A DNA stretch of 64,000 bases from an uncultured Methanosarcinales archaeon (lineage in GTDB: Archaea; Nanobdellota; Nanobdellia; Woesearchaeales; GW2011-AR15). Made by a program: the position numbers and the translations under genes. Shown here in pieces: positions 1,244 through 25,137 of this stretch. The notes under the pieces are model-generated. The model did not search any database and was not told where the DNA came from. It was given only the letters and a program-made list of their open reading frames with translations. The stretch covers positions 93,100-157,099 of the forward strand of contig CAZHYZ010000001.1 of the NCBI GenBank assembly GCA_964537195.1. The letters run 5' to 3'. Each line of letters opens with the position of its first letter. The first letter of the stretch is position 1.

Positions 1244-1699
1244 ATGAACAAAAAAGCACAAGCCACTTCCTGGTCACTTAAAGAAATTTTTACTTTGTTT
1301 CTTAGAATAATGGCTGTTATTGTTCTTGTTGCATTTATTGCAGGAATTGTATCAATATTTACAAAACCAAAGATGTTGGGAAATGCTTATCAAGATTTGG
1401 AGAGAGTAGCAGGGGAAATACAAGATCTTGAAGAGGGTGAATCAATTATTGTTCCAACACTCTCAGTTGGTTATTCTGTAATGATTCGTACATCTGAAGT
1501 TGCCGAAAGTCTTAGACTTCCATGTAAAACAAAAGAAGCAGATTATTGTGCTTGTTTACTAGATAAGGATGAGAATATATTAACTTGTAAAGAAATTGTG
1601 ACTGAAGCAGATATTTCTAATATTGATTTTAATTTAAGATCTGGCGAAACAATTGTTGTTGAACACACAAACGATAGAATAACAATTGGACGAGCATAA
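1244..1699 (+). CDS. Small membrane-anchored protein with a pilin-like N-terminus (MNKKAQ...hydrophobic helix)
   Basis: N-terminal KKAQ followed by a ~25-aa hydrophobic segment. AT-rich TATA-like promoter at 1180-1235. Confidence 0.45.
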   Translation: MNKKAQATSWSLKEIFTLFLRIMAVIVLVAFIAGIVSIFTKPKMLGNAYQDLERVAGEIQDLEEGESIIVPTLSVGYSVMIRTSEVAESLRLPCKTKEADYCACLLDKDENILTCKEIVTEADISNIDFNLRSGETIVVEHTNDRITIGRA

Positions 1700-1702
1700 T
1701 TT

Positions 1703-4700
1703 TTATGTTACACCACTTGCAACTTCTCCATTACCCAATAAACAACCTTTCTGATTCATTTCAGAATATGCTGCAGAATTACAAATAGCAGCTTTCTGTA
1801 GTAAACTTGGAGAACAACCATTACTTATCAATATTTGGGCTAGTTGTTGTGCTGTCCACTCTTTACCATTTCTTATAAATCTATAATACTTACTACCGGA
1901 GTTGTATTCAGCACCCCATTCAGAACTTATTTGACCACTGCATCCGCCCTGCATGTGTTGTAGGTTATGGGTGATTTCGTGTTTGAATAGGGTGTTTAAG
2001 GTCTCTTTGCCTGCACTTTCTAATTTATCTCTTTTACAATATATCCCTATACCATGACAACCAGAGTGGACCCAACACCAGGCATTTTTATTAATGTCGT
2101 TTGTACAATCTGTATAAAGCTTATATGTGCCCCCCATATCGGCCTTTACTTGGTTGAATATTTCCATATGTGGTCCATCATATATCTCTCCAGTGCCTGG
2201 AGAATATTCTCCTGTTGATTGTATAGTACTTGGTTCTGAATATTCCATCTCAGGGATTTCTTTTACACCCTCACTATGCATTGTAACAGCAAACCTAACA
2301 TTAACAGGAAGTTCTGAATATTTATATCTGGAATAAGCATAAACTGTTTCTCCAGTTTCAATACAGAACTTTAATGTAGAACTTTCATCATAATCATCAG
2401 GTTTTTCTATGCAAGAAGTGCCGTCCCAAATACCCCCGCCAGTATAACAATCACTTTCTATTGAGCTATATGTACAATAGTCAATATTCCAATCATCTTT
2501 TCCATTTTCATCAAGCACTTCTTGTGCACATTCTTTATATGTAACATCCAGGTCTCTGCATTTCATTTCTTGCCCATCATCTTTACATAATTTTTCTTGT
2601 CCATCTTGTCCAATACATAAGGGTTGATCAAAGTGGAATTTACATTCATAGTCATATGAATAAGTTGTTGTGGGAGTTATAAAATTATAACATTCAAGAG
2701 TCTGGCCATCATTACTGCATGATTGATAATTTCCATTAATATCTAAACAAATATCTTTAGGGAGAATTCCTTCACAAGTATAATCATAGAAAGCACAATC
2801 TAATGTTTCTGTTATTAATTCATTGCTGGCAAATGCCATGTCATTATGGATGCTTACCAGATCAACATCTGATTCTTCATTAATTTCAGGATTTATAAAA
2901 TAAAATCCAGTGCTTAATTCTTTCATTAGTTTTGATAGGGCTATTAGGTCTAGTGTTTCTGTTAACTCATCAACCGGCTTAGTAGTTGTTGATGAAGGAT
3001 CCCATTCTATATCATTTGGACAGGCATCTTGAAATTGAACTGCCGTGGTATGGAAATCTTCTACATAGCTTTGGATCGCTCTGACAATATCTTCATAGTT
3101 ATCCTCATTCTCAAATGTAGGTGCACGACAACCCCAGCCATTATATAATCTTAAAGCCATATCCCACCCACGGTATACAACATGTTTATCAGGAATACTT
3201 GAAAATTCACTATTATAACAATCATATTCTTTACTAGAACTATGACAATTATATGCATTACATTTTTCCAATAATATTTTAGCGCCACATTCAATATTAT
3301 CATTAACTTTATAGATATCTAATTTGTGACCGTCTATCTCGCTATTACCACAATCTTTTCTGCCCGTTATTTGCATTATACCAACTCCACCGTCACCAGT
3401 AACTAATACACCACCATTTCTATAATGGTCACCACCGCTTTCTTTCTCTGCTATTGTTAATAATATAGTCCCAGGTATATCATATGCATTTGCAACTTGA
3501 CATACATTTTTTTGCTGATCTGATAATTGTTCATAAGTAACCTTACCAGTAATTTGATTGTCTTGAGGTTGAGATATTAATAAAAATGCAAATGCCAATA
3601 TAACAAAAACACCCATTGTAGAGAACACAATTATTTTCTTTTTCTTTATGTAAAAGAAAGCAAAAACAATCAACAAGGTAATAACCAGAGCAACAATGGT
3701 GGGAATTACAAGATTGTTATCCTCCTTTTTATCTGGGATTTGTGATTCTTCTTTTTTCGGAGGAACATATTCATTACCTGCTTTAGTATATTCAATTATT
3801 TCTTTTTGTTCTTCCGGAAGGTATTCTGTTGGAACTTCTTTTGCCTCAAATTGATTTTTACAAGTCCCCATACAACAAGCAGAGGTATCATAGGCAGATA
3901 TACTTAATCCAAAACAGCTTTTTCCCTCTGTACAGATGTCGCCACCAGTTTCTTCACATGATTTAAATTGTTCAAAAACAACAGGTTCTTCTTCTGCTTT
4001 TGGAATGAATTCAAAACTTGTTTCAGTTATTTCATTATCTTCAAGAACATCTACTGCTCTCCCACTTATTAAGGAATTTCCCAGATTACTATCAGAACAT
4101 ACTCGTTTACCCCCTATATAATGTTTGTTCCATTCCTCTTCTTCAAGACTTTTTATTTCTACATTATTTCCCACATGTATAAATTGACAATCTCCATAAT
4201 AAATACCAACATGTGAAATTCCTTGTTTTGATGTGTTTGCAAAAAATATTAAATCTCCTTTTTGGAATTCCTCACAATTTGGAGTTATTTCTTCCCACAC
4301 ATCTAACTCTTGTGTTGGGTCATGGTCAACAACAAACCCGATATTTTCTGCTTGCCATTCTGCGTTTCTTACAGGAATTGTGAAGTCTCCATCTTTTTCT
4401 TGATTTGAATAATAATTATAGACCCACTTTGTAAATGCACTACTGTCAGTGGGACATTTCCCAGTCATTCTCACAATCTCTTCCCATTCTTCCATTATTT
4501 CTGCCCATTCATCTTCACCATAATCAGCATGATTTAAGATTATATTAGAACAATCATCAGGTTCAAGAGGTAATCTTTCTGGATCCCATTCTCCACTACC
4601 AAAAAAATAAGGAAACCCAATACCTTTCTCAGCTATCTTTACAATTGTATCCCCACAATTACTTCCTTGAATAATCTCTTGTTCTTCAGTTGGTGGATTT

Positions 4701-5383
4701 CTGAGAATAAAAGGAGATTCACTAACAACAATATCCTCTCTATTTATACAATTTTCATCTTCTACTTCCTTTATACTTCTATATGAAGTTAGGATTTCTG
4801 GAGCACTTTCATAACATTCTCCTTCTGAAACTGAGAAATATAAAGGTCCTGCATTTGTAGATCCAACACAACACTTTCCCTTAAATTCTGGCATTATCTC
4901 AATTTTTAGATGATTTCCCGGGTAGCCATATAGCATGAATCCATCACTCGTTTCAGAGAACAACATATTGTAGTCGATTGTGGGCATTCCTACGTCCTGG
5001 AATTTTTCAGTATATGTTGGAAGAATTTCTTTAATATATAATGCTAAATTTGTAGAAACAGAAGGAGCACAAGAACCTTCATCACTGTTAATCAATTTGT
5101 ATCCATAATTTTCTCCAATTCCACAACTAAGGCCATACATAAATCCAGTTATAGAACCAGTATATATTCCTTCCATTAAAACTTGTCTTGCTGAAAAGTC
5201 TATATAGTGTTGTACTATCTCTCCTTTTTCATAAGCATCCATTAGGTAGAATTGAGTTGTTCCAGTTCTTTCTTTATATTGATTGAATTTCCCCCACATA
5301 TTTACAATGGTTGTTGTTACTAGAATTATCATTACTACTACTAAAAAAAGTGAGTACTCTGTTCCCCTTTTTCTTAGTTTCAT
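1703..5383 (-). CDS. Giant (1226 aa) class III-signal protein with NlpC/P60-like peptidase, two TM helices, SLT lytic transglycosylase domain, a Cys-rich region and a C-terminal HExxH motif
   Basis: N-terminus MKLRKRGTEYSLFLVVVMIIL. NlpC/P60-like block (DDCSN / DSSAFTKWVY ... GDLIFFANTSKQGISHVGIYYGDCQFIHVGN) at ~4150-4550. TM pair at ~3550-3700. SLT motifs (AEKESGG ... GIMQI ... AYN) at ~3130-3480. HEITHNLQH at ~1960-1990. Confidence 0.7.
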   Translation of the reverse strand: MKLRKRGTEYSLFLVVVMIILVTTTIVNMWGKFNQYKERTGTTQFYLMDAYEKGEIVQHYIDFSARQVLMEGIYTGSITGFMYGLSCGIGENYGYKLINSDEGSCAPSVSTNLALYIKEILPTYTEKFQDVGMPTIDYNMLFSETSDGFMLYGYPGNHLKIEIMPEFKGKCCVGSTNAGPLYFSVSEGECYESAPEILTSYRSIKEVEDENCINREDIVVSESPFILRNPPTEEQEIIQGSNCGDTIVKIAEKGIGFPYFFGSGEWDPERLPLEPDDCSNIILNHADYGEDEWAEIMEEWEEIVRMTGKCPTDSSAFTKWVYNYYSNQEKDGDFTIPVRNAEWQAENIGFVVDHDPTQELDVWEEITPNCEEFQKGDLIFFANTSKQGISHVGIYYGDCQFIHVGNNVEIKSLEEEEWNKHYIGGKRVCSDSNLGNSLISGRAVDVLEDNEITETSFEFIPKAEEEPVVFEQFKSCEETGGDICTEGKSCFGLSISAYDTSACCMGTCKNQFEAKEVPTEYLPEEQKEIIEYTKAGNEYVPPKKEESQIPDKKEDNNLVIPTIVALVITLLIVFAFFYIKKKKIIVFSTMGVFVILAFAFLLISQPQDNQITGKVTYEQLSDQQKNVCQVANAYDIPGTILLTIAEKESGGDHYRNGGVLVTGDGGVGIMQITGRKDCGNSEIDGHKLDIYKVNDNIECGAKILLEKCNAYNCHSSSKEYDCYNSEFSSIPDKHVVYRGWDMALRLYNGWGCRAPTFENEDNYEDIVRAIQSYVEDFHTTAVQFQDACPNDIEWDPSSTTTKPVDELTETLDLIALSKLMKELSTGFYFINPEINEESDVDLVSIHNDMAFASNELITETLDCAFYDYTCEGILPKDICLDINGNYQSCSNDGQTLECYNFITPTTTYSYDYECKFHFDQPLCIGQDGQEKLCKDDGQEMKCRDLDVTYKECAQEVLDENGKDDWNIDYCTYSSIESDCYTGGGIWDGTSCIEKPDDYDESSTLKFCIETGETVYAYSRYKYSELPVNVRFAVTMHSEGVKEIPEMEYSEPSTIQSTGEYSPGTGEIYDGPHMEIFNQVKADMGGTYKLYTDCTNDINKNAWCWVHSGCHGIGIYCKRDKLESAGKETLNTLFKHEITHNLQHMQGGCSGQISSEWGAEYNSGSKYYRFIRNGKEWTAQQLAQILISNGCSPSLLQKAAICNSAAYSEMNQKGCLLGNGEVASGVT

Positions 5384-5832
5384 GATTTGAATATTACCTC
5401 CAGATTCTCAATCTCTCCATTAATCATATAAGGAATTTTTGTTCTGGCATCAAGGTCTCCAATCTTCAAATCAGACATATCAACACAATTATTGTCTTCT
5501 TTAATTATGACACTTTCAAGAAACAAGGTCCAACAAACTTTTTCCCCAAATGCCTCTTCTAGAACATAATTGATTTGTGTTTTACTATCTGTAAAATCCT
5601 CTTCTAAATAGTCAGAGATTAATCTTTCTTGTAATCTTCCTTCTGGTGTTTCAGCTCTTAACAAGTTTAATAAAAACAAATCATTGTTAAGTTTATTTTT
5701 AGTTTCCTCAATCTTAAATACAGATTTCTCCATGAACCCAAGAGAAGCCATTAGAAAAATAAAAAGAAGAATAATTACAATAGTGGCAGCAACATCTACT
5801 TCCACAAAGGCTTTTTTCTTCATTTTCTCCAT
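5380..5832 (-). CDS. Small type IV pilin-like protein (class III signal peptide)
   Basis: MEKMKKKAFVEVDVAATIVIILLFIF N-terminus. Start/stop overlap with flanking genes, so operonic. Confidence 0.5.
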   Translation of the reverse strand: MEKMKKKAFVEVDVAATIVIILLFIFLMASLGFMEKSVFKIEETKNKLNNDLFLLNLLRAETPEGRLQERLISDYLEEDFTDSKTQINYVLEEAFGEKVCWTLFLESVIIKEDNNCVDMSDLKIGDLDARTKIPYMINGEIENLEVIFKS

Positions 5833-6290
5833 GCCACCTCAATTAACAAATTAGCAGGAGCTAAATCTTCAGTTAATACTAAATATCTTTTTTCTATAGC
5901 TTCATAATCATCTGAGAAAGCCAGAGGGAGAATATCTTCATAATACTCTTGGTTATAGTATATCGTTGTCTCTTGGTCTTTTTGTGTAAGTACTAATCTC
6001 GCACCAAGAGGTGTTTTTGATGGGGTCATACAATTGCCTATAGAATCCTCATTAAACTTATCTGTTTCAATAATTCCAGGATAAGCTCTAGTGTTCTCGG
6101 TTTTGATAAAGCAATCAGGCGAGAATAAAAAACGCTCTGCAATTGAATAATATCTCAAATCATCTGTATCAAGACTTTCTTCTATCGTTCCATTGATAAC
6201 AAATACAAGCAACCCAATGACAACAATGGTTCCAATAATTCTGGCAATCCATAAAACATTCTCTCCAGAATCACCTCTTTTATTCATCAA
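5820..6290 (-). CDS. Small type IV pilin-like protein (class III signal peptide)
   Basis: MMNKRGDSGENVLWIARIIGTIVVIGLLVFV N-terminus. Overlaps its neighbours. Confidence 0.5.
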   Translation of the reverse strand: MMNKRGDSGENVLWIARIIGTIVVIGLLVFVINGTIEESLDTDDLRYYSIAERFLFSPDCFIKTENTRAYPGIIETDKFNEDSIGNCMTPSKTPLGARLVLTQKDQETTIYYNQEYYEDILPLAFSDDYEAIEKRYLVLTEDLAPANLLIEVAWRK

Positions 6291-6822
6291 CTAAATCCTC
6301 CTTTGAATTATAAAACCTAATAGTATCTCCTGCTTTAATCATAGAAAGTTTTACTGGAATAACTGATTCAGGCTCATCTTTGTTTTCAAAAAAAGTGAAC
6401 AGGGGGGACATTTCATCATAATATACCTTAATGCTGGGATTTTCAATATAGGAAGATTTTGCAACACTTCCAATTATTATTCCATTCTTAGAGTTATATA
6501 CAGAAATCTCATTCTTTCTGACATCAAATGAGAAATCTTGTGTGTTCTTGTTGTAATTAAATATCAAATCATTTGGACTGGCCATTAGGGTGTCTGCTAA
6601 AATTGCTAAGTCAAGAGCAAGATAATTTTTTTCAAAATAATTTGATGTTGTTACCTGCATTATAAACATATAGACAGGTATGAATACAATAACAAAAACC
6701 ACTATGAACCTTACAATCACATTCCATGACAATGAGAAGTATTCACTACCTCTTTTTGACTTCCACAAATCCATGTCTTTTTCATAGTAAGTTTTCTTTA
6801 TATAGTTTTTTGTTAAAAACAA
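6280..6822 (-). CDS. Small type IV pilin-like protein. The true start is probably the internal MDLWKSKRGSEY (about 6774).
   Basis: KSKRGSEYFSLSWNVIVRFIVVFVIVF motif. Confidence 0.45.
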   Translation of the reverse strand: MFLTKNYIKKTYYEKDMDLWKSKRGSEYFSLSWNVIVRFIVVFVIVFIPVYMFIMQVTTSNYFEKNYLALDLAILADTLMASPNDLIFNYNKNTQDFSFDVRKNEISVYNSKNGIIIGSVAKSSYIENPSIKVYYDEMSPLFTFFENKDEPESVIPVKLSMIKAGDTIRFYNSKEDLVDE

Positions 6823-6857
6823 AACTTATTTAAATCTCAAAAAGCAGGTAAAAGTTA

Positions 6858-7013
6858 ATGTTTCCTAATATATTTAAGAAGGCTCAAACCACCACAATGG
6901 AGCCGGCCACAAGGTTGATAGGGGTTATTTTGCTTGGCGTAGTAATCTTTTTACTCATCTATTTTGCTATATCAGGAAAACTCTCACAGATACTTGTAAG
7001 TGATTTCATATGA
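6858..7013 (+). CDS. Mini pilin-like ORF (51 aa), absent from the ORF track
   Basis: Own translation: MFPNIFKKAQTTTMEPATRLIGVILLGVVIFLLIYFAISGKLSQILVSDFI. Its stop overlaps the ATG of the 7010 gene (ATGA). Confidence 0.35.
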   Translation: MFPNIFKKAQTTTMEPATRLIGVILLGVVIFLLIYFAISGKLSQILVSDFI

Positions 7014-8104
7014 AGAAAGGATATATGACAATACATGGAATAATGGGCATTCTGTTAATATTGGTAGTATTTATGATCTTGTTTGGAGCTACCCCATTAT
7101 ATTATCAGATTATATCTAATTTTGGAGAGGACACACAATGTCAGGCAAGCTTTATAGCAAGTGCTATGACAAGGACACTTGGAAAAACAGTAATAGATCC
7201 AAAATGTCAGACAAAAAGAATAACTTTTGTTGTTGATCAGAAAGAGGAAGGGCAGACAGAAACAGGAGGAGAGAAAAAAGCCATATTGAGAGATTATTCT
7301 AGTAATTTGCCTAGTTTACCTCATGATACTGTTGCAAGAGTTGAAGCTTGGAATGATATTGTTGATGATAATCCTGAATTTTCTGATAATCTAAAATATA
7401 CTTATTATGAGGATTATGAAGATTTGACAGATAAAAAAGAACTAGAGGAAGAAGATTATATTACAATGCGTTACAACATGGATTATTTGATGGCTGATGA
7501 ACTGCAGAGATGCTGGCAGATTGTAGGTAGGGGTAACTTGCCTTTATTTGATGAGTATTGGAAGTTTATTGGGTGTCGTGATTCAGAAGGTGGCCCTGTT
7601 AGAGAGTGTAAAGATGCTGATGATTTTTGGTCTAATGTTGAAAATATTAGGGCCTGGAAAACCAGACCAACAGCAAATTTCTGTGTTTTATGTTCCAGAG
7701 TAAAATTTGATACAGAGTTACAAGAAAAATTTCACGAAGAATATGAATCTATTAATGTATGGATGAAAGTAAATCCTTATACTACTTCCTTGACCGGAGA
7801 TGTGTCTGAAAAAAGTTATTATGAATATGTTATCGATGATTCATTTAAAGGGATAGGAGCACAGCCATATTTTAGTTATACTACGGATGAGGCACAGGCA
7901 GTTGTTTTCATTAGGTATAACTGGCACAAAGGATCTCAATTTGCTGCTGGAGCAGTTCAAATTTCAGACAACATTTTAGGTAAATTGCCTTTTTATGAAG
8001 GAACCTTTGATAACCAGATTGTTCACTATTATAACAGTCTTCAAATAATACCTTATTCAGAATTATCAAATGAATGTAATTACATAGTTGGTTCATATGT
8101 TTAA
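7010..8104 (+). CDS. Secreted/membrane-anchored hypothetical protein with a pilin-like N-terminus
   Basis: MKKGYMTIHGIMGILLILVVFMILFG. No recognisable catalytic motif. Confidence 0.5.
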   Translation: MKKGYMTIHGIMGILLILVVFMILFGATPLYYQIISNFGEDTQCQASFIASAMTRTLGKTVIDPKCQTKRITFVVDQKEEGQTETGGEKKAILRDYSSNLPSLPHDTVARVEAWNDIVDDNPEFSDNLKYTYYEDYEDLTDKKELEEEDYITMRYNMDYLMADELQRCWQIVGRGNLPLFDEYWKFIGCRDSEGGPVRECKDADDFWSNVENIRAWKTRPTANFCVLCSRVKFDTELQEKFHEEYESINVWMKVNPYTTSLTGDVSEKSYYEYVIDDSFKGIGAQPYFSYTTDEAQAVVFIRYNWHKGSQFAAGAVQISDNILGKLPFYEGTFDNQIVHYYNSLQIIPYSELSNECNYIVGSYV

Positions 8105-8240
8105 AAAATCAGAAATAACACTTGAAATGGTTATAATATATATACTTGCACTACTCTTTGCTGTGGTTGTAATTGTATTAGTTGTAAGAAATAATCAGTC
8201 ATTCAGAGATTTATTATCAATGTTTTCAAGAATACTATGA
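8097..8240 (+). CDS. Mini pilin-like ORF (47 aa), absent from the ORF track
   Basis: Own translation: MFKKSEITLEMVIIYILALLFAVVVIVLVVRNNQSFRDLLSMFSRIL, a textbook class III signal peptide. Overlaps the upstream stop by 8 nt and the downstream ATG (ATGA). Confidence 0.35.
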   Translation: MFKKSEITLEMVIIYILALLFAVVVIVLVVRNNQSFRDLLSMFSRIL

Positions 8241-11200
8241 ATAAAAGAGGTCTTACTTTAGAATTAGTTGTAAAAGCTGCAATCTTAGTAATTGTACTTT
8301 TTGTAATGGGGAATTTCATTAGGACAACTTTTTTAGCAGGGGAAGAAGCAAGACATGTAATATTACCAGATTATGGAGAATTTGAACCTTATGAGTATGA
8401 ACCTGTTGGTGATGACGCCACAGTTTCAGATTCTGTTAATGCATTGATTTGTGCTATAAATGCTGTTGCAAAGATTGACAACATAGATGACAAATATTTT
8501 TTGCAATATGAGGGTTATGAAACTTTCTTTGAGGAAAAAGACTGGAGGAAAGGAACTTGTGAAGGCGGTGTTGTAGTTGAGGAAATTGAGAAGGAGGAAG
8601 AACCCACAGGAACACTATGTAGAGCTAACTATGGAAATTGTGTTGCTTCATTAAGTAATGAGAAAGCACATTTTGAAGAAGCAGATTATGATGAGAACAA
8701 TAATGAGAATGTTGAAGAGTTATGTCCAGAAGAAAAACCTTTCTGTGAAATCCAATGTCCTTTTGAGTGGGGTAGTGGATGTAATGATGTTGGAGAAAAG
8801 AAATGTAGATTAGCAACTGCTCGATATTGTATGTCTTCTGGTTATTGGTGTCAGACAAATTGTAAAGAAGAGCTTTATAGGGGTGCTTGTTCAGAAGATA
8901 ATGGAGATATCTTTTGTGGATATTCAAATTATGTTGAATTCGAAATTGAGGAAGAAATTCAGAAACAAGTTGAGCAAGAAGAAACCACACTTAGCTGTAC
9001 AGATGGAATTCTATATGGTTCTAACTGTGTTCAATGTTTTGCTGAAGGAGCTACAAACTTCAAATGTACTGTTTCAGATTTCTATCTGCCTCAGACAGGT
9101 GCAGGAGACAGAGGCACTTTGGACAGGTGGATAGCAGGACTGGGAGATCCTGAATATATAGTTTATTACGAGAAATTTCCACAGGGAGAAGACATATATT
9201 GGACAGCAGATTTTGCATCATTCGGCCCAGCAGTATTGGTGCTTAGTGGGATATCAGCTTTTGTATTTCCATTAAGTGATGAGATTAAGGCAGCCACAAA
9301 AGTAGATGATTTTGGAGATGCCCTTAAAATTGCAAAGACACAGGTCCCATTCTATCGTGTAGTTACAGGTGGATCATCCTTGGTTTCGTCTATCGGAAAC
9401 GTAAGAAAATGGTTCAGTAAAGACACTTATGAAGGACTTGTCAAGAAAAAAGGTTTGAGACATATACTGATTACAAATCAAGATTATTTGCTTGATCCTA
9501 AAACCGCAGATGAGAAGATGGAAGTAATTTCTAAATACATTTCAGGAGGAACTTATAAAGCAGGAGCAAGTAGTACAGATATGATTGATGAATTAGCACC
9601 CTTATTCACTAAAGATCTTGATTCTATTTATTATACTGGAAGTGATGAAGCAGTTGCAGAACTAACTAAAATGATTGACGAAATTAAGCCAAAGCATGCT
9701 TCTTTTCTTAGATATCCTGAAGATGTCAGGAATGCTTTATATAGGGAAGCTTTAGCCAGGGAATTAACTCAAGAATTTGTTGATGAGGATGTAGGTAGAA
9801 TATTAAGTATTTCCAGTGGTGAAGTAATAGAGGAAATGGCTCAAAGACAAGCCACAAGACAAGGCATGAAAGCAATTGTGGGAAATATGTTTGATAGTTC
9901 AGGAGATTTTAGTGACAGAGCATTTAAAAATTTCCTTAAAGAACATGGCAAAAGTGCAGAAGGACTTGAATGGATAATAGATAATCAACAATTATCTGGG
10001 ACACAGACAAAGAAATTATTAACACATTTAAACGATGTAACCGGAGACATCCCATTAGACAGGCAAGTACTCTTTAATAGAAAAATTATGTCTGGACAAA
10101 TAGATGAAATCACACAAAGCATCGATGCTGGCGGAAACATAATTGAAAGTACTGCTTCAACAATGTCTTCAATTTATGGTGGGGCAAAGAATGTTCCTGT
10201 GTTTGGAAAGATTGTAGGGCTGCCTGAATTTGCTGCCAAATTAGGATTAGCTCCAGTCTCAACCCCAAGCAGACGTTTCTTTACTTGGGCAGCACTGTCC
10301 TATTATGGCACATTACACGATAGTGTAAATCAGAAATTTTATCCTTCTGGGAAAGATTCACTGGTCCTTACAACACCCAGTTTGATTGGAGTAAAGCACG
10401 AATTTAATCTTCAAAATGCAGAAAATTATGCTATTGCACTTAGAGAAGATGGTGACACACCAATAAGATTCCACATGGCTAGTCCTTGTAAAGCAGATTT
10501 AGAATTGTATCCTGCAACGGTTATTGCAAAATCAGATGAGACCTCGATAACAAGATACGATCTATATGACTTTGGATATGGATTTACCCCTGTTGAAAAA
10601 GGTTCTATACAATATGATGAGGTTGCTTTTGAATTTTCACAGAAGGAATATCCACAAGGGGATTCTTTAATTAGGGATGCAGATGAAGCAATGGAAGAAG
10701 AGAATTATAAAGAAGCACTAATAAAATATCTTGAATATCTTGAAAAATATCCAGATAGTAAAAAGTTTGATTCTGTGTTTAATAAGGTTGATTCAATCTT
10801 AACAACAGGAGAAATATTGACTACGTTTGATAAAGAAGAGTTAAGGGAAATTGCTTTTACAGACAGGTTAGATGTTGATACACGGGCCAGAATTAATAGT
10901 TATGCAATTAGAATGAAAGATTCCGTAGATGAAGGGTGTGGTAGTTATGAAGGATATAAAGAAAAAATTGAATGGTGTGAAGGACTTATTAATGGAGAAT
11001 ATTATGCATTTAGAGACTCGGTTTTCATTCAGGATAGTGGAGCGGTTTATGATCCTCTTTATGATTGGACTTACTTTGATTATTCTTATTATGGTTATTT
11101 GAAAAAACAGAGGTTTGAAGATATAAGTACAAAGTATATGTTGTCTTTATTGTATGTTGATTCTAGAACACACTTTGATGTTAGGACAGGAGAGTCTGCT

Positions 11201-12028
11201 TGGTTAATCGACGCCGATTATGATAATTTGGATTTTGATATTGGACTTCTAGAACTTTATAAATGGATTGGAGAAAGATTTAACTTTGGTTATGCAGATA
11301 GAGTGGTTTTTGGAGAAGCCGGTCAAGATCCTTGGATTTCTCCATTTATGTTTGACATAGGAGATTTCCCAGTTCCAAAACATTTACTCTACAAGCAAGA
11401 TGTTTACTTAGATAAGAAGATTTCTTGGCTACCAGATCCTGACACATATGAGGATGAAGTTGTTAGATATAATAGACAGCTCTTAAGAGATAGTTCATTT
11501 ACAGGAGAAAGTTATGGTGATTTGTTAAAAAAGAAAGTCTTGTATGAAACCAAGGCTTCAATCTTAGAAAATGTTCCTGGACAGAGCATTACAGAACAAG
11601 AGGTTGAAAACTGGGTTAGTATATCTAAGGAGATTCAAAATTCTTATGATGAAAAAATAACAAAAGAAAATGCAGTTAAACTTATTGGATTTGATGAAAC
11701 AGTATATCCAGAAGAGTCCTTTTTTGAGAGTGACTGGCACAAGTTTAGATCTATTACTATAGAAGCAGATATTGATGAATCTCTTGATTCAAATTACTGT
11801 TATCATGGACATCATCCAACAAGAGCAACAATAAGGACATTAGTTGTTGGAGCAAGCCTGTTTGCAGATGAAATTGGCGGAACACTTGCAGGAGGTGCTT
11901 GCGCATCTACGGCAGTTTTAGCTCCCTTTTCTGGGTTGTGTGCAAGAGGAGGAATGTTTGTAACAGACATCATTTTTGCTTTGGGAGAGAACTTTATTAA
12001 CAAACTAGACAAGTGGCCAAGACGTTAA
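8237..12028 (+). CDS. Giant (1263 aa) class III-signal surface protein of unknown function with Cys-rich and TPR-like segments
   Basis: MNKRGLTLELVVKAAILVIVLFVMG N-terminus. Cys-rich block at ~8600-9100. Hydrophobic C-terminal segment. Confidence 0.6.
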   Translation: MNKRGLTLELVVKAAILVIVLFVMGNFIRTTFLAGEEARHVILPDYGEFEPYEYEPVGDDATVSDSVNALICAINAVAKIDNIDDKYFLQYEGYETFFEEKDWRKGTCEGGVVVEEIEKEEEPTGTLCRANYGNCVASLSNEKAHFEEADYDENNNENVEELCPEEKPFCEIQCPFEWGSGCNDVGEKKCRLATARYCMSSGYWCQTNCKEELYRGACSEDNGDIFCGYSNYVEFEIEEEIQKQVEQEETTLSCTDGILYGSNCVQCFAEGATNFKCTVSDFYLPQTGAGDRGTLDRWIAGLGDPEYIVYYEKFPQGEDIYWTADFASFGPAVLVLSGISAFVFPLSDEIKAATKVDDFGDALKIAKTQVPFYRVVTGGSSLVSSIGNVRKWFSKDTYEGLVKKKGLRHILITNQDYLLDPKTADEKMEVISKYISGGTYKAGASSTDMIDELAPLFTKDLDSIYYTGSDEAVAELTKMIDEIKPKHASFLRYPEDVRNALYREALARELTQEFVDEDVGRILSISSGEVIEEMAQRQATRQGMKAIVGNMFDSSGDFSDRAFKNFLKEHGKSAEGLEWIIDNQQLSGTQTKKLLTHLNDVTGDIPLDRQVLFNRKIMSGQIDEITQSIDAGGNIIESTASTMSSIYGGAKNVPVFGKIVGLPEFAAKLGLAPVSTPSRRFFTWAALSYYGTLHDSVNQKFYPSGKDSLVLTTPSLIGVKHEFNLQNAENYAIALREDGDTPIRFHMASPCKADLELYPATVIAKSDETSITRYDLYDFGYGFTPVEKGSIQYDEVAFEFSQKEYPQGDSLIRDADEAMEEENYKEALIKYLEYLEKYPDSKKFDSVFNKVDSILTTGEILTTFDKEELREIAFTDRLDVDTRARINSYAIRMKDSVDEGCGSYEGYKEKIEWCEGLINGEYYAFRDSVFIQDSGAVYDPLYDWTYFDYSYYGYLKKQRFEDISTKYMLSLLYVDSRTHFDVRTGESAWLIDADYDNLDFDIGLLELYKWIGERFNFGYADRVVFGEAGQDPWISPFMFDIGDFPVPKHLLYKQDVYLDKKISWLPDPDTYEDEVVRYNRQLLRDSSFTGESYGDLLKKKVLYETKASILENVPGQSITEQEVENWVSISKEIQNSYDEKITKENAVKLIGFDETVYPEESFFESDWHKFRSITIEADIDESLDSNYCYHGHHPTRATIRTLVVGASLFADEIGGTLAGGACASTAVLAPFSGLCARGGMFVTDIIFALGENFINKLDKWPRR

Positions 12029-12678
12029 TATAATCTTATAATGATTGCATCATCTACTTCTTCTGCTAAAACTTCAGATTCAGAAATATCTCCAACAATA
12101 ATCCCGCCTTTTGATTCCATGTAATTATTACTAAAACGAGATTTATCATCATTTATTTTTGTATAATATATGCCATTAGAAATCTCCTCAAAATCAAATT
12201 CTTTATAGTTCTCATAATCAGCTCCCCAAAATATATTTGTCTTTTTCATTTGTTGTTTCCAGTCTTTATCAACAAAAATAAATGCAACTGGGTTGTCATC
12301 AATTATTCTTTCAATAATAAAACCTTCAATTACATTGTTATTAGGATTAAGCTCAGATGTGAATCTGATAAGAACATTTTCATCATCATCAACATATTCA
12401 TCCTTGAAATACACTCCTTTGTAGATTCCGTCGTGTCCAAAAGCAGTTCTGATTTGAGGTTGGTTTATCTGTTGACCTATATAATCTAAATAACTAGTAC
12501 CTTTTGTGGCTTCTTCTATATCAACTTCTTTTATATTTCCATTTGAGATTATCCAATCTCTTGGATCATCAGAATATTCATCCTTACTCGGAAAGAATTT
12601 GTATACAATAAAAGATCCAAGAGTAAAGACTACAATTGCAACAAGAAGTAATACCTTCTTTTGTTCACCTGATTTCAT
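12025..12678 (-). CDS. Membrane-anchored hypothetical protein. Start preferred at internal Met 12678 (MKSGEQKKVLLLVAIVVF); the ORF track extends it to 12792.
   Basis: The N-terminal TM follows the internal Met. The longer version would overlap the divergent 12750 gene and promoter. Confidence 0.4.
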   Translation of the reverse strand: MKSGEQKKVLLLVAIVVFTLGSFIVYKFFPSKDEYSDDPRDWIISNGNIKEVDIEEATKGTSYLDYIGQQINQPQIRTAFGHDGIYKGVYFKDEYVDDDENVLIRFTSELNPNNNVIEGFIIERIIDDNPVAFIFVDKDWKQQMKKTNIFWGADYENYKEFDFEEISNGIYYTKINDDKSRFSNNYMESKGGIIVGDISESEVLAEEVDDAIIIRLY

Positions 12679-12749
12679 ACATTTTTTTAGCCAGACCGAG
12701 TTTATATAATTTTCTTTTGGAAAAATATTTATATCTGTGTTCGTAGGAT

Positions 12750-13055
12750 ATGTATATGAATAAAAAAGGACTTGAGATATCACCACCTTCATTAGTAGTT
12801 GTCATTATACTTCTTTTGTTTGTTTTAGTCGTATTAGTATTTATATTTGGAGGACAGAGTGGAGAATTCTTAAAAATAATAAACAAATGGAGAGGAGACA
12901 TAACTTCTGAAGATAAATGTGAAAGTTCTATACTTGGCAGATATTGTGGGGAACCTCCTTGCGGGGAAGGATTAAGACCAAGAAAATTGCCACCCCCACC
13001 AAGTGGAGATTGGATAGATTGTACAGAAGGCTGTTATGAATGTATTCCAGAGTAA
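12750..13055 (+). CDS. Small pilin-like protein with a Cys-rich C-terminal knot
   Basis: MNKKGLEISPPSLVVVIILLLFVLVVLVFIFG, then CESSILGRYCGEPPCGEG...CTEGCYEC. Confidence 0.45.
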   Translation: MYMNKKGLEISPPSLVVVIILLLFVLVVLVFIFGGQSGEFLKIINKWRGDITSEDKCESSILGRYCGEPPCGEGLRPRKLPPPPSGDWIDCTEGCYECIPE

Positions 13056-13075
13056 GATAATTAGTTTCTATTTGT

Positions 13076-13366
13076 TTATTCAGAATTACCGATCTCAGGT
13101 ATTATTCTTTTACAACAAATGCCACCATCTTCACATTCAGCGCCAGGAACTCTGGCATAATCTTCTATGCATTTGTTGGAATCCTTAGAATCTCTAAAAG
13201 CATCATCACACTCTCCACCAACAGTCTCACAACTATTGGCTTGAGTAACAAACAAACCGGACTGCCTGCCAACAATAAACACCAGAATTATCAGGACCAT
13301 CAGAGCAATAACTGCTATCACAATTGTGTTTATTGAAATAGATTGAGCTTTTTTCATCTTATACAC
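13076..13366 (-). CDS. Small pilin-like protein with a Cys-rich tail (paralog of 13359..13634)
   Basis: MYKMKKAQSISINTIVIAVIALMVLIILVFIVG ... CETVGGECDD... Confidence 0.5.
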   Translation of the reverse strand: MYKMKKAQSISINTIVIAVIALMVLIILVFIVGRQSGLFVTQANSCETVGGECDDAFRDSKDSNKCIEDYARVPGAECEDGGICCKRIIPEIGNSE

Positions 13367-13634
13367 TTATACAACACACTTTGTCTGGATCTTCTTCGCC
13401 ATTAGTGTAACATGGGTGGTTGGTAACTTTCTGATAATCTCCATCACATGCATCTCCTTTATTAACAGCATCTCTGTCTTCACAACTACCGCCGACAGAA
13501 TGACAATTGTCTGTCTGTTGTCTCCAATTACCTAAGTTTTGTGTGGTGATTAAAAGAATTAAAATCAAGACTACAAGAGCAATAGCTGCAACAACTATTG
13601 TGTTTATTGAAATTGCTTGTGATTTCTTTCTCAT
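13359..13634 (-). CDS. Small pilin-like protein with a Cys-rich tail (tandem paralog)
   Basis: MRKKSQAISINTIVVAAIALVVLILILLIT ... CHSVGGSCED... Confidence 0.5.
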   Translation of the reverse strand: MRKKSQAISINTIVVAAIALVVLILILLITTQNLGNWRQQTDNCHSVGGSCEDRDAVNKGDACDGDYQKVTNHPCYTNGEEDPDKVCCISV

Positions 13635-13673
13635 GAGGAAAATTATTGATATTAAGATATATAAAAGTTTTGG

Positions 13674-14144
13674 TTATTTACAGATATCTAATCTAATCTC
13701 TAAAGTATTTAAGTATCTGAAACTTGGAGGATATTTCTCAGCAGCATCATCGCAGACAGAATTTTCAGGGATATCGGGTATTAATTTTTGACCTGTTTTT
13801 CTATTCTTTACACTGAATTTATATGGTTTTTTCCATTCTCCTAAAGTGATCTTTAAAGCATTAGAAATAGTCTGTCTCGCATATTCACAACAATCAGCAT
13901 TTGCACCACAGGCATCATTTCTTCCTTGAGCACAATCCAATAAAATATCAGAAACCTCTGAGTTAATCTCTGTCTTTGTATCCAGAATAACATTAAGAAA
14001 ACTCTGAGCTAATTCAGGATTAACATATTCTGAAGAGAGAGATTCTTCTTTATTAGTCCTTACAACAATCATAAAAAAACCAGCAATAACTAGGATTAAT
14101 ACAATAAAAACAATTCCAACAATCTCTGTTTGTGCTCTTTTCAT
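13674..14144 (-). CDS. Type IV pilin-like protein
   Basis: MKRAQTEIVGIVFIVLILVIAGFFMIV. Confidence 0.5.
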   Translation of the reverse strand: MKRAQTEIVGIVFIVLILVIAGFFMIVVRTNKEESLSSEYVNPELAQSFLNVILDTKTEINSEVSDILLDCAQGRNDACGANADCCEYARQTISNALKITLGEWKKPYKFSVKNRKTGQKLIPDIPENSVCDDAAEKYPPSFRYLNTLEIRLDICK

Positions 14145-14674
14145 CTATAAACACCCAGTTTTAAAACACCAAAATAATTTGAGTTTTTAATAGGGTCTCT
14201 TAATAAAACAGGATAATGAACATACATTATTCCATTATTTTCTGATGGAGGATTATCATAGATATTCCATTCCTCAATCCATTTATTTTCATCAGGGCTT
14301 GGATCAAATCTTTTTACAGTTATATTTAAATTTCCAAGAGCATTATGATAATACCTATCATCTTGAGTTTTTTCTTGCTCTAATCTATCCTTGAATGCAA
14401 TCATCTTTAATATGTCATAGCAATCTGGATCAATATCATTACTATCAGAACATTGCAACTCTGGTATGAAATTGAGAACTTGAGATTTCTTTACTATTTC
14501 CAGCCCCCTAAGTTGTTCAATTTTTTCTTTTCTATCTTGTTCCTGAATTGCCATAACAAAAATAAAAGCTAATATTAGAATAATAAATATAGTAATAAGT
14601 ACAAAGGAGTTCTCCATCATTTGTAACTGAGCTTTTTTTGACATTTTAATATATAGTTGGACAAGCCTTTTCAT
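14141..14674 (-). CDS. Type IV pilin-like protein (start probably MSKKAQ at ~14644)
   Basis: MSKKAQLQMMENSFVLITIFIILILAFIFVMA. Confidence 0.45.
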   Translation of the reverse strand: MKRLVQLYIKMSKKAQLQMMENSFVLITIFIILILAFIFVMAIQEQDRKEKIEQLRGLEIVKKSQVLNFIPELQCSDSNDIDPDCYDILKMIAFKDRLEQEKTQDDRYYHNALGNLNITVKRFDPSPDENKWIEEWNIYDNPPSENNGIMYVHYPVLLRDPIKNSNYFGVLKLGVYR

Positions 14675-15677
14675 TTAATCTTTCATTGATTACATTTAAT
14701 TCGGTGCTTGCATCAGCAATATTATTTATCTTCTCTTTTGTTATGTCCCCTCTTACTGAGGTATATTCTTCCAAATCGTTCAATAGAGAAAAGGCCTGAT
14801 TATAATATTGCAAATCACACAAAGAAGGCAGATTTGAATTTCTGATTATATTCACTCTTTTTTTTAGTACGTCTGTTAATCTGTTTAGTCTTTTGAAAGC
14901 CTTTTCATCGAGATTGCATTCATAAGTTCCACTATTTTCAGAATATACTGCTGCAATTAATGTTGCTGTATCTAAGTAATATGTCCTATCCTTTTCTACA
15001 AACATATTGCCTTGTTTTTCATAAAAAATTATCTCACCATCTTCTATAAGAATTGCAGTAACATCTTCATCGTTTGCTCTTATTACTGATGTGTGTAATG
15101 TAAATAAGCTAGGATCTTTTGAATTTGAAATAAATCTGATTTTGTAGTAATTTTCATTCCTGAAATTAAATTCTTCATTAATACTAATTAGAAATTTTGT
15201 TAGATCGTCTGGCATTTCCTCATAAAGATGTTCGTTCTCATAATCTTCTCCAACAAAGACATAAGAAACTTCCGGACTTGTCATGTATAAAAAATTATTT
15301 ACTTTAAATGGAACATTCCAAGACAAACCATAACTTAATATCTTTGTTTTAATTGTATGCGGACTAAACAAAGGAAGAAACTCCGTAGATCTGCCTTCTA
15401 AGTCAGACCCAGAGAACGTGTAAAAAAAACAATTGTCTCTTGTAGTACTGACTTCCAATTCTAATCCAGATAGTTCAATGGGGCTCTGAGTTCTTTCACT
15501 ACTTTGTAATCCAGTAAGAATCTCATCCAATATATTTATGGAATCAATCTCCAACTGTTTTTGAGAACTTTGTCTTATTCCAGAGATAATATTAACAAAA
15601 AACAGTAGAATAACTACTCCAATAACACCAATATAAATCCAGTTAAACTGTACTTCTACAACGGCTTTTTTGTTCAT
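14646..15677 (-). CDS. Type IV pilin-like protein (343 aa)
   Basis: MNKKAVVEVQFNWIYIGVIGVVILLFFV. Confidence 0.5.
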   Translation of the reverse strand: MNKKAVVEVQFNWIYIGVIGVVILLFFVNIISGIRQSSQKQLEIDSINILDEILTGLQSSERTQSPIELSGLELEVSTTRDNCFFYTFSGSDLEGRSTEFLPLFSPHTIKTKILSYGLSWNVPFKVNNFLYMTSPEVSYVFVGEDYENEHLYEEMPDDLTKFLISINEEFNFRNENYYKIRFISNSKDPSLFTLHTSVIRANDEDVTAILIEDGEIIFYEKQGNMFVEKDRTYYLDTATLIAAVYSENSGTYECNLDEKAFKRLNRLTDVLKKRVNIIRNSNLPSLCDLQYYNQAFSLLNDLEEYTSVRGDITKEKINNIADASTELNVINERLNEKACPTIY

Positions 15678-16156
15678 CTTAATAGAGCAGAATTACCCTT
15701 TCCTATTAATGTAACAGTTAATAATCCTTCGTTCTCTAAGCAAAGATAATCAGATTCTACATTCAAATTATCTACATAAAAAGAGTCCTCGATTATGTTG
15801 TTTTTTAATAAGAAAACATTCTTTGGGACATTATCTTTTATACTGTCTTCTATAAATAAATTATCAATATCAGCATCCAAATCAAAGACTTCTTCATCCG
15901 TCATGGAATCAACAAAACATATTGTGTCGAATCTATCGGGAAGCCGGAACTCATATTTTTCTACAGATTCATATTGTCTAGATATTTTAGACACGATTCT
16001 ATCAAAATCATCTTTTAAATTATCTAGTGGGATTTGGTTGCCTGCCTTAAGTATGGTAGAAACTGCCTTGTAGCCTACAGCAAGTATTATGACTACAATT
16101 ACAGCAGCCATTATATATACAAAAACTTGAGATGATATTTGTGCCTTTGATTTCAT
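15674..16156 (-). CDS. Type IV pilin-like protein
   Basis: MKSKAQISSQVFVYIMAAVIVVIILAVG. Confidence 0.5.
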   Translation of the reverse strand: MKSKAQISSQVFVYIMAAVIVVIILAVGYKAVSTILKAGNQIPLDNLKDDFDRIVSKISRQYESVEKYEFRLPDRFDTICFVDSMTDEEVFDLDADIDNLFIEDSIKDNVPKNVFLLKNNIIEDSFYVDNLNVESDYLCLENEGLLTVTLIGKGNSALLR

Positions 16157-24447: not shown

Positions 24448-24603
24448 ATTTAAGATTAGCCAGGCCTCAGCTAACTCTCTTTCTCCCATAAAGGGACTAC
24501 TCCGAAGTATCCTCATCGGCCTGGTCATTAAAGGAAAAACATATACATTAAAAAAGTTTAGTAAAAGAAAAATATATAAAACATGTTTCTCTATGAAAAC
24601 ATA

Positions 24604-25137
24604 ATGAAAAAAAGAGGCCAGATAGCAGTAGAGTATATTCTTATTATAACAGTAGCGCTTATGATTATTCTTCCAGGAATTTATCTGTTTAGAAATTATG
24701 TGTCTCAATCAAGTGACCAGATAGTGGAAAGAAGACTAACTGAGATATCTAACTCAATAATAACAAAAGGGAGAAAGATGTATTATTATGGACCACCATC
24801 AAAATCAACGGTAACGGTTGAGTTGCCTCCTGAGATTAGGGCAATGTACCTTCTTGGAGTCAATGGCTCAGATAAGGAAGTAATTGAATCTTACCTAGTT
24901 TTTAGAACAATCTCCTCACAAGGAGAACAAGATTTTCTTTTTGAGTCAGATGTTCCTCTTTATGCTGTGGATGAAGCAAGTAGGTGTGAAATAAGTGATC
25001 AGTGTTCAAAAGGATACTGCATATGTTTTGATAACAGATTTTATTCTAAAGGAATAAAGAACTTTGAAGTGCAGGCTAAAGATTGTATTTTTGGTACTTG
25101 CATATTCATAGATGAAATCTCTCCGGATTTAAGATGA
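24604..25137 (+). CDS. Type IV pilin-like protein (archetypal DUF361-type class III signal peptide)
   Basis: MKKRGQIAVEYILIITVALMIILPGIY. The ORF track starts 21 nt upstream. Confidence 0.55.
   Translation: MKKRGQIAVEYILIITVALMIILPGIYLFRNYVSQSSDQIVERRLTEISNSIITKGRKMYYYGPPSKSTVTVELPPEIRAMYLLGVNGSDKEVIESYLVFRTISSQGEQDFLFESDVPLYAVDEASRCEISDQCSKGYCICFDNRFYSKGIKNFEVQAKDCIFGTCIFIDEISPDLR

Follow-up and report, generated by a model that had tools for sequence, protein, structure and literature searches.

The locus described here raises the question of what a giant protein built from folds of murein hydrolases is doing in an archaeon, and in particular in a setting where its neighbours carry pilin-like signals. 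The gene in question, coding for 1226 residues and referred to below as the hydrolase, lies in a 64-kb stretch of DNA that was analysed as a whole (the window). The answer towards which we lean, judging from its domains, is that the protein is anchored in the membrane, exposed at the cell surface and probably able to cut bacterial murein in trans. Giant SLT proteins in Woese-/Pacearchaeota, together with the hypothesis of a bacterial host, have already been published (PMC8204110, PMC9723730, PMC10936187), and the hydrolase represents a well-resolved member of this previously reported class of DPANN cell-wall-cutting surface proteins.

The locus and its host

The hydrolase gene closes an operon of four minus-strand ORFs (6280–6822/6774, 5820–6290, 5380–5832 and 1703–5383; Table 1), whose coordinates, with successive overlaps of 11, 13 and 4 nt, bear out the overlapping stops and starts of the preliminary description; every motif quoted there was likewise found where it had been placed. 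The starts considered most likely for the first two genes agree with those of orthologues and with an independent gene call. The Logan assembly of SRR7048221, made independently, contains a protein identical to the hydrolase, and the orthologue P0002 is 50% identical. TATA-like boxes, recognised by pattern match only, lie 22–23 nt 5' of the first start codon of each of the two divergent operons.

Table 1. Features of the hydrolase locus (coordinates within the window; a slash in a signal marks the predicted site)
Feature	Coordinates	Strand	Basis or remarks
Divergent operon, four class-III-signal-like proteins (51, 364, 47–50, 1263 aa)	6858..12028	+	
Divergent intergenic region	6775..6857	.	TATA-like boxes, pattern match only
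164-aa class-III-signal-like protein, first gene of operon, start ATG 6774	6280..6774	-	
155-aa class-III-signal-like protein, start ATG 6287	5820..6287	-	ORF, orthologue starts, SRR7048221 assembly
150-aa class-III-signal-like protein	5380..5832	-	ORF; orthologues in L001, L006, L008
1226-aa multi-domain hydrolase gene, last of operon	1703..5383	-	ORF
Class-III-like signal (MKLRKRG/TEYS) and first hydrophobic helix, residues 1–30	5294..5383	-	
Conserved N-module, residues 31–175	4859..5293	-	invariant K32, G41, Y51, E55, C87, C105
NlpC/P60 domain, residues 232–436	4076..4690	-	triad positions S314-H391-H403
Codon AGT = Ser314, nucleophile position	4442..4444	-	TGT = Cys in relatives
TM hairpin, residues 555–605, with putative cytoplasmic KKKK loop	3569..3721	-	hydropathy scan
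Family-1 SLT (GH23) lytic transglycosylase domain, residues 606–800	2984..3568	-	putative catalytic Glu E648
Cys-rich middle region, residues 801–1039	2267..2983	-	conserved in P0002, P0005, P0006, P0023
C-terminal zincin-like metallopeptidase domain, residues 1040–1226	1706..2266	-	H1135, E1136, H1139, Q1142, E1155
Convergent 151-aa class-III-signal-like protein (MNKKA/Q...)	1244..1699	+	conserved in L001

The divergent operon is conserved together with the hydrolase operon. Synteny of the complete locus, about 10 genes long, extends to at least four loci of archaea, one in the window and three in other genomes or metagenome contigs (L001, L006, L008), so that homologous operons do recur in related archaea. 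The layout of small subunits followed by one giant protein is conserved across these loci; in L006, the homologue of the 164-aa protein is fused with a NAGPA glycosidase domain. The locus is chromosomal, with housekeeping genes on its flanks (RPA, RadA, TRAM and LigT adjoin it in L001, L008 and L009). Judged by these gene comparisons, the locus is inherited vertically; the hydrolase gene is its terminal gene, and the products of its roughly 10 genes are all class-III-signal-like. PCNA relatives carry Woesearchaeota or Nanoarchaeota labels, and by this marker the host is a Woesearchaeota-type DPANN archaeon, in keeping with the origin first proposed.

Enzymatic domains

The SLT domain is the most conserved module of the hydrolase (79% identity with the orthologue). 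Its Pfam match is marginal for the single sequence (PF01464, residues 630–713, 23.7 bits against a cutoff of 21.3). A family profile of 22 sequences matches lytic transglycosylases only, including MltC (8.7e-6), Slt70, EtgA, MltE and, weakly, a tape-measure lytic transglycosylase, with the ES and GLMQ motifs and the catalytic Glu aligned. The motifs are E648-S649, G668-I-M-Q671 and Y747-N748-G749, of which E648, G668, Q671, Y747 and G749 are invariant in the family and N748 is nearly so. The family-1 assignment and its ES and GIMQ motifs were therefore upheld, but NAYNC, earlier taken for a catalytic motif, was rejected, motif III being LRLYNGWG (744–751).

The Cys-rich region that follows has no match in Pfam or the PDB. 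The C-terminal domain shows a zincin fold of the gluzincin type, with HExxH on the active-site helix and a downstream Glu ligand. Within HEITHNLQH, H1135, E1136, H1139 and Q1142 are invariant, as is E1155 downstream. The third His (H1143) is not conserved and was discarded as a catalytic residue, whereas the HExxH...E signature and the core fold of the original zincin call were retained. The domain was not placed in any specific named family (M9, M48 and minigluzincins were among those tested).

The NlpC/P60 domain is recognised by Pfam (PF00877, MEROPS C40; 47.6 bits, cutoff 23, residues 343–425), by phmmer matches in the PDB to LytE, MepS/Spr and YkfC-like proteins (5e-8 to 1e-4) as well as to the Tn916-type hydrolases 4hpe and 9ubf, and by matches to PHROG phage tail-lysin families. 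H391 and H403 are conserved, 12 residues apart, and align with the SH(M/V)GIY...FIHAG motif of LytE. Position 314 is occupied by Cys in 18 of the 20 aligned family members, including the 50%-identical orthologue, and by Ser in the window protein and P0073; Ser314 is also found in the SRR7048221 assembly. The substitution flagged initially is thus genuine and sits at the catalytic position. Of the two nucleophile candidates named at that time, DSS marks this position, while DDCSN falls in a variable Cys-rich insertion and was rejected. The serine at the nucleophile and the marginal single-sequence SLT score (23.7 versus 21.3 bits) both count against the murein-cutting reading.

By its matches, the window copy belongs to the NlpC/P60 fold and family without having the canonical cysteine-peptidase nucleophile, and by analogy with PrgK and RipD the domain is probably either weakened or a binding or regulatory module. 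Carried further, this would make the hydrolase a mostly non-catalytic adhesin, whose hydrolase folds are kept as murein-binding modules that attach the archaeon to bacterial walls. The Cys-to-Ser change, shared with P0073, is a possible sign of such decay, and the inactive or regulatory LytM and CHAP domains of PrgK provide a precedent (PMC11323569), but the catalytic Glu and all motifs of the highly conserved SLT domain are intact, HExxH...E is invariant in the zincin and the NlpC/P60 cysteine is kept by those 18 relatives, which makes an adhesin the least probable of the readings weighed here.

Predicted membrane anchoring and the pilin question

A hydropathy scan delimits three hydrophobic helices in the hydrolase (8–30, ~556–578 and ~583–605), the second and third being the two internal helices already described. 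Because of these three helices, the hydrolase is most simply viewed as an integral membrane protein. The hairpin is conserved along with the SLT domain in P0002, P0005, P0006, P0009–P0015, P0020, P0033 and P0035. Basic residues at the N-terminus and in the KKKK loop that links TM2 to TM3 would agree with an N-in orientation in which both catalytic regions face outwards, and the 48 Cys residues of the protein are compatible with an extracellular location.

The N-terminus (MKLRKRG followed by TEYSLFLVVVMIILV) has a short basic n-region, G at -1 and a hydrophobic helix directly after it, while that of the orthologue reads KKA/TEYS; it is predicted to be a class-III-like signal or anchor. The pattern claimed for a class III signal is present, but none of the four operon proteins matches Pfam Class_IIIsignal (PF04021) at E<=1, although two further proteins of the window do. 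Nor is the pilin-like signal confined to four genes, as had been supposed: [KR][GAS] followed by a hydrophobic helix is seen in 16 of 17 consecutive genes (1244–16156; binomial P~2e-11), and G, A or S is kept at the predicted signal position across orthologues. The adjoining N-module makes up proteins P0025 and P0047 on its own and is joined to other hydrolases in P0008, P0009 and P0027. Its AF2 model (pLDDT 70) has a helix (7–79) and then a small beta domain, and structural comparison of this model gave no significant match and no pilin match.

The widespread signals, the operon layout, the long helix with a beta domain behind it and the two Class_IIIsignal matches would also suit a hydrolase borne on a pilus or pseudopilus. 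The small proteins and the N-module would then be minor-pilin-like subunits that are processed by a prepilin peptidase and form a short fibre or tip complex presenting the enzymes to the bacterial wall, much as bacterial minor pilins present PilY1. We regard this arrangement as unlikely, since the conserved TM hairpin should retain the giant protein in the membrane, the operon proteins lack the Pfam signal match, and no assembly (pilus) ATPase, platform protein or prepilin (A24) peptidase was found within the 64-kb window. The pilus tethering proposed earlier is supported by the N-terminal signal pattern only, and the three TM helices make an integral membrane protein the simplest view. The absence from the window of a pilus ATPase, a platform protein and a prepilin peptidase also counts against the murein-cutting reading.

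Substrate and proposed function

Relatives combine the modules of the hydrolase with Peptidase_M23, Glyco_hydro_25, SGNH/GDSL, beta-lactamase-fold and C39-like domains. In published work, murein is essentially the sole substrate described for M23 and GH25 enzymes, and this module swapping therefore points to murein as the likely substrate, consistent with the inference first made.

In the murein-cutting reading, a disulfide-rich protein would be held in the archaeal membrane by its N-terminal class-III-like helix and the internal TM hairpin, exposing one ectodomain with the conserved N-module and NlpC/P60, and a second with the SLT lytic transglycosylase, the Cys-rich region and the zincin metallopeptidase. 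The SLT domain would cut the glycan strands of murein, and its peptide stems would be cleaved or bound by the zincin and NlpC/P60 modules. The archaeon might in this way gain a hold on bacterial cells or wall debris, breach them or use them as food.

The same folds could be self-directed, with the SLT and peptidase domains remodelling a hypothetical wall polymer of the archaeon itself or opening a path for its own surface appendages, in analogy to lytic transglycosylases that bacteria dedicate to T3SS, T4SS and flagella (EtgA, VirB1 and FlgJ); EtgA is among the matches of the SLT profile, and a surface-appendage-like locus surrounds the gene. However, DPANN archaea are not known to have murein, and mur genes are absent from the window and from all loci compared with it. 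The architecture is similar to that of PrgK and CwlT of Gram-positive T4SS (PMC11323569), but archaea encoding PGHs are overwhelmingly not pseudomurein producers (PMC12352652), and a self-directed role seems very improbable.

A further reading, somewhat more doubtful than the pilus-borne one, is nutrient scavenging, in which free murein and necromass would be digested so that an auxotrophic archaeon obtains amino sugars and peptides, with no attachment to living bacteria. It calls for a catalytic set identical to that of the murein-cutting reading, DPANN archaea reportedly scavenge cellular compounds (PMC9723730), and membrane anchoring would keep the products close to the cell. Nevertheless, transporters for muropeptides, amino sugars or peptides were not found beside the locus, and its pilin-like or adhesin-like partners fit surface contact better.

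Relation to known systems

For large SLT proteins of Woese-/Pacearchaeota, binding or degradation of the bacterial wall has been proposed (Castelle 2021, PMC8204110; Vigneron 2022, PMC9723730). Rinke 2013 and Castelle 2015 are further references for the giant SLT proteins of DPANN archaea. The hydrolase resembles those of fam00969 (Castelle 2021) in its DPANN host, its SLT/GH23 domain and its nature as a very large, presumably exported protein, a likeness that rests on the Woese-/Pacearchaeotal host, the size (1226 aa) and the SLT domain; both also occur alongside numerous functionally uncharacterised proteins specific to the lineage, and for both a role against the walls of bacteria is proposed. 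Whereas the published proteins were annotated for SLT only, the hydrolase adds a Ser-variant NlpC/P60 domain, a TM hairpin and a zincin. Neither class-III-like signals nor a conserved locus of 10 genes in which hydrolase modules are exchanged are described for them, and the terms 'pili', 'pilin', 'NlpC' and 'peptidase' are absent from the text of PMC8204110.

Another parallel is found in the VirB1-like hydrolases of Gram-positive conjugative T4SS (PrgK of pCF10, CwlT of ICEBs1, Tn916 Orf14-type), which are likewise membrane-anchored and join an SLT/muramidase domain to a metallopeptidase domain and one of NlpC/P60 or CHAP type; degenerate or regulatory versions occur among these domains, and the 'SLT' domain of PrgK is a muramidase (PMC11323569). 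In contrast to these, the hydrolase has an archaeal host, no VirB4/VirD4 nearby, a reversed domain order, a zincin in place of LytM/M23, three TM helices and a class-III-like N-terminus, and its target wall would have to be that of another organism.

In experiments, PG hydrolases of archaea kill bacteria, and a survey notes how prominent and diverse such enzymes are in Nanoarchaeota (PMC12352652). Woldo/Danwoldo of Halogranum salarium (PMC12352652) are likewise archaeal proteins with murein hydrolase folds and are deployed outside the cell against bacteria, as proposed for the hydrolase, but they are small, soluble, Tat- or Sec-secreted proteins with catalytic and PG-binding domains, whereas the hydrolase has 1226 residues, a predicted membrane anchor, three enzyme folds and a pilin-like locus. 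Phage virion-associated (tail) lysins, to which the PHROG matches relate it, breach walls locally from outside, as the hydrolase may do; unlike theirs, its syntenic, housekeeping-flanked chromosomal locus holds no phage structural genes. Finally, the core zincin fold, HExxH and the downstream Glu of the C-terminal domain recur in minigluzincins (projannalysin, proabylysin, selecase) and in other HExxH...E zincins.

Architecture and catalytic residues of the giant hydrolase

The giant hydrolase, the 1226-aa product of the last gene of the minus-strand operon, is composed of discrete modules, listed in the table together with the other features of the window. The SLT domain is the most conserved of them in comparison with the 50% identical orthologue P0002 (79% identity, against 44–56% for the other modules, a range that leaves out the TM hairpin and the lineage-specific 176–231 insert, both of which are lower). 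Neither the SLT region alone nor the C-terminal 426 residues gave a significant phmmer match in the PDB, and family profiles were needed: the SLT profile, built from 22 sequences, matches MltC (8.7e-6), followed by Slt70, EtgA, MltE and a phage tape-measure lytic transglycosylase, every PDB match being a lytic transglycosylase, with the ES and GLMQ motifs aligned. The SLT identity proposed in the preliminary description thus stands, but the AYN at 709 (NAYNC) is not motif III, since the conserved element is the Y-N-G at 747–749. E648, G668, Q671, Y747 and G749 are invariant, and N748 is nearly so.

The Ser-for-Cys replacement noticed earlier in the NlpC/P60 motif is real. S314, encoded by AGT and so a single base away from the Cys codon TGT, sits at the nucleophile column of the family alignment; 18 of the 20 sequences have Cys in this column, and P0073 is the other one with Ser. 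H391 and H403 are conserved, with the 12-residue spacing seen in MepS and LytE. An assembly error is unlikely, as an identical protein is found in an independent Logan assembly, possibly derived from the same reads. P0073 is an unrelated family member whose close relative P0066 retains Cys, which suggests that the replacement is recurrent within the family. The other candidate nucleophile, DDCSN, falls in a variable Cys-rich insertion, out of register with the DCS column of the family, and is non-catalytic. In the C-terminal HEITHNLQH motif, the third His, a candidate ligand, is not conserved, while Q1142 and E1155 are invariant.

Coordinates of features in the window and residue ranges of the modules of the giant hydrolase
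Feature	Position	Strand	Remarks
Operon gene 1	6280–6822, more likely 6280–6774	−	ORF; revised start
Operon gene 2	5820–6290, more likely 5820–6287	−	ORF; revised start
Operon gene 3	5380–5832	−	ORF
Operon gene 4, giant hydrolase	1703–5383	−	ORF
Class-III-like signal and first helix	residues 1–30		MKLRKRG then TEYSLFLVVVMIILV
Conserved N-module	residues 31–175		stand-alone in P0025 and P0047; at head of P0008, P0009 and P0027
NlpC/P60	residues 232–436		Pfam 47.6 bits (cutoff 23); PDB matches LytE, MepS, YkfC-like and Tn916-type hydrolases
TM hairpin with KKKK loop	residues 555–605		hydropathy; accompanies SLT domain in ~12 relatives
Family-1 SLT	residues 606–800		Pfam 23.7 bits (cutoff 21.3); family profile matches lytic transglycosylases only
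Cys-rich region	residues 801–1039		no assigned function; kept in P0002, P0005, P0006 and P0023
Divergent intergenic region	6775–6857 (83 nt)		between minus-strand and plus-strand operons
Second giant	8237–12028	+	1263 aa, class-III-signal-like
Conserved locus	1244–12792		~10 genes
Run of 17 consecutive genes	1244–16156		signal pattern in 16
876-aa protein	16153–18783	−	bacterial TSP3 and fn3 repeats
Second pilin-like cluster	24583–32484	+	two proteins match Pfam Class_IIIsignal
Cohesin-domain protein	27072–27989		one of the two Class_IIIsignal proteins
1301-aa protein	36596–40501	−	11 thrombospondin type-3 repeats
Tandem paralogues	40583–44406	+	617 and 639 aa; MKKAQSSLF-type N-termini; no Pfam match
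AspRS	57398–59164	+	GAD domain (bacterial type)

A content of 48 Cys residues is in keeping with an extracellular location, and the basic N-terminus together with the KKKK loop predicts a topology in which both catalytic regions lie outside the cell. The term "surface-anchored" is well supported for the giant hydrolase.

Relatives and exchange of modules

A full-length word-indexed search with the giant hydrolase recovered a single orthologue cluster, while an exhaustive HMMER search recovered 1627 cluster representatives at E≤1e-3, 16 of them at E≤1e-30; no paralogue of any hydrolase module is present within the window. Each module turns up independently among these relatives. The N-module is combined with M23 and NlpC/P60 in P0008 and P0009 (the latter with SLT too), SLT with a GH25 muramidase in P0013 and P0020, and NlpC/P60 with a beta-lactamase fold in P0011 and P0027 or with a C39-like domain in P0018. 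An SGNH/GDSL esterase occurs in P0005, P0010, P0012 and P0023, accompanied by the SLT module in all except P0023, where a Cys-rich middle region takes its place, and by a C39-like domain in P0010. This shuffling of independent murein-specific enzymes provides the strongest indirect evidence that the substrate of the giant hydrolase is murein.

Operon organization and conservation of the locus

The ORF positions confirm a four-gene minus-strand operon whose stops and starts overlap by 11, 13 and 4 nt, the last as ATGA; the revised starts of the first two genes are those indicated by the N-termini of the orthologues and by gene calling done independently on the Logan assembly. In the divergent intergenic region, pattern matching places a TATA-like box 22–23 nt ahead of the first start codon of each operon, a spacing that would fit leaderless divergent transcripts. 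A scan for sigma-70 promoters (37 sites against 36.3 expected) was uninformative, the consensus being bacterial and the host archaeal.

The recurrence of homologous operons in related genomes was borne out: the whole locus is found in the same order, at 23–61% identity, in three loci from other genomes or metagenome contigs (L001, L006 and L008), namely 364-like, ~50-aa, giant (~1000–1260 aa), 255-like, 164-, 155- and 150-like proteins, with the hydrolase last. The second giant has a weakly conserved partner of ~935–1257 aa in all three and no match in Pfam, NCBIfam or PHROG. A scan of genome contigs found only the MAG of L001. What varies across loci is the enzyme payload: in L008 (6937–10712) the hydrolase is split into an N-module–M23 gene (358 aa) and an SLT–GH25 gene (903 aa), and L006 (5746–7038) encodes the 164-like protein as a fusion with a NAGPA (phosphodiester glycosidase) domain. 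PCNA and RNase J flank the locus in the window; in L001, L008 and L009 it adjoins RPA, RadA, TRAM and LigT. A prophage or mobile-element origin was rejected on the basis of this synteny and these flanks; shared gene order and housekeeping neighbours indicate a chromosomal, vertically inherited locus.

Class III-like signals and the question of a pilus

In all but one of the 17 consecutive genes, the first basic cluster is directly followed by [KR][GAS] and then by a hydrophobic helix (binomial P ~2e-11, at a G+A+S background frequency of 0.18), and G, A or S is retained at this position in orthologues. Together, these sequence patterns argue for a specific class III (prepilin) type processing site rather than generic signal anchors. 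The N-termini in this run generally take the form M-x-K-[KR]-[GAS], and several of the genes are tiny (47–101 aa). The operon proteins show no match to PF04021, and the predicted model of the N-module, moderately confident at pLDDT 70, consists of a helix (7–79) and a small beta domain. The 64-kb window encodes neither an assembly ATPase nor a platform protein, and no A24 prepilin peptidase. The giant hydrolase could, on account of its signal, be imagined as a pilus-tip warhead; incorporation into a fibre is unlikely given the conserved TM hairpin, and "pilus-tethered", as the preliminary description had it, is kept as a minority possibility.

Taxonomic affiliation of the host

Besides PCNA and an Rpb3-like RpoD, the window (GC content ~33%) codes for an RNase J and a PEP carboxylase of archaeal type. 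Without exception, the closest named relatives of PCNA (62–79% identity) carry the label Candidatus Woesearchaeota, Nanoarchaeota or Nanoarchaeia, so that the host was rightly called DPANN-like. The MAG carrying L001 and L004 (GCA_964552005.1, CAZKFC010000001.1) is titled "uncultured Methanosarcinales archaeon" at NCBI; as it holds the syntenic locus, and the marker relatives of the window belong to Woesearchaeota/Nanoarchaeota, that label was rejected in favour of the latter and is probably a mislabel.

Proposed function

Considered as a whole, the giant hydrolase is probably a membrane-anchored, multi-catalytic murein degrader that works in trans, at the surface of the archaeon, on the walls of bacteria. 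The SLT domain would cut glycan and the zincin domain, by its presumed substrate, peptides, while the Ser314 NlpC/P60 domain would be weakened or have a binding or regulatory role, for which RipD is one precedent. PrgK, whose LytM and CHAP domains are inactive, offers another for a non-catalytic domain of this kind (PMC11323569). Rivals to such a membrane-anchored degrader, besides the pilus tip, are a non-catalytic adhesin, the scavenging of necromass and a self-directed role.

A wider and rather doubtful proposal takes the whole locus as an archaeal surface apparatus not described before, built of pilin-like class-III-signal subunits and two giants and dedicated to the breaching of bacterial hosts by Woesearchaeota. 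As its terminal subunit the apparatus would carry a murein-cleaving "warhead" that can be exchanged, bearing NlpC/P60, SLT, zincin, M23, GH25, SGNH or beta-lactamase-fold enzymes depending on the genome, and it would serve as a cross-domain device for attaching to and breaching bacteria, functionally analogous, not homologous, to T4SS VirB1-type and phage-tail wall-breaching modules.

Relation to previous work and significance

Woese- and Pacearchaeota are among the most abundant uncultured archaea, and the locus bears on whether they live on bacterial or archaeal hosts. It also gives testable molecular handles. The three predicted catalytic domains are separable and their active-site residues have been identified; the natural replacement of Cys by Ser can be compared with an orthologue that retains Cys; the zincin domain represents a new family outside Pfam coverage; and the partner proteins form a conserved set. 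The enzymes are, moreover, potential antibacterials.

The observations of the preliminary description were confirmed and its interpretation held in part; its central inference, that DPANN murein hydrolases target bacteria, has been published before (PMC8204110, PMC9723730). A family of large extracellular proteins with an SLT domain (fam00969), reaching 3000 aa and described as specific to Woese-/Pacearchaeota, has been proposed to act on bacterial walls by binding or degrading them (PMC8204110); on the same basis, Vigneron et al. proposed "vampiristic" Woesearchaeota (PMC9723730), and ODZ DPANN MAGs likewise have large SLT-domain proteins (PMC10936187). Archaeal PG hydrolases, prominent in Nanoarchaeota, kill bacteria in experiments, and a Sec or Tat signal is recognised in only about one third of them (PMC12352652), a low share that class-III-like or anchor N-termini may help explain. 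Within the literature searched, three things appear undescribed: the architecture as a whole, with its Ser-variant NlpC/P60, its TM hairpin and a zincin that Pfam lacks; the class-III-like signals; and the conserved locus with swappable payloads.

Further genes of the window

In the second pilin-like cluster, the two Class_IIIsignal genes, one of which also encodes a cohesin domain, are followed by a 1478-aa ORF without a recognised domain. The 876-aa and 1301-aa repeat proteins look, from their sequences, like Ca-binding adhesins. The tandem paralogues share their N-terminal style with ~470-aa zincin-bearing proteins elsewhere, yet lack the zincin domain. Finally, the AspRS has a GAD domain of bacterial type although the genome is archaeal; encoded close by are CorA, a patatin-like phospholipase and an amidase resembling GatA.
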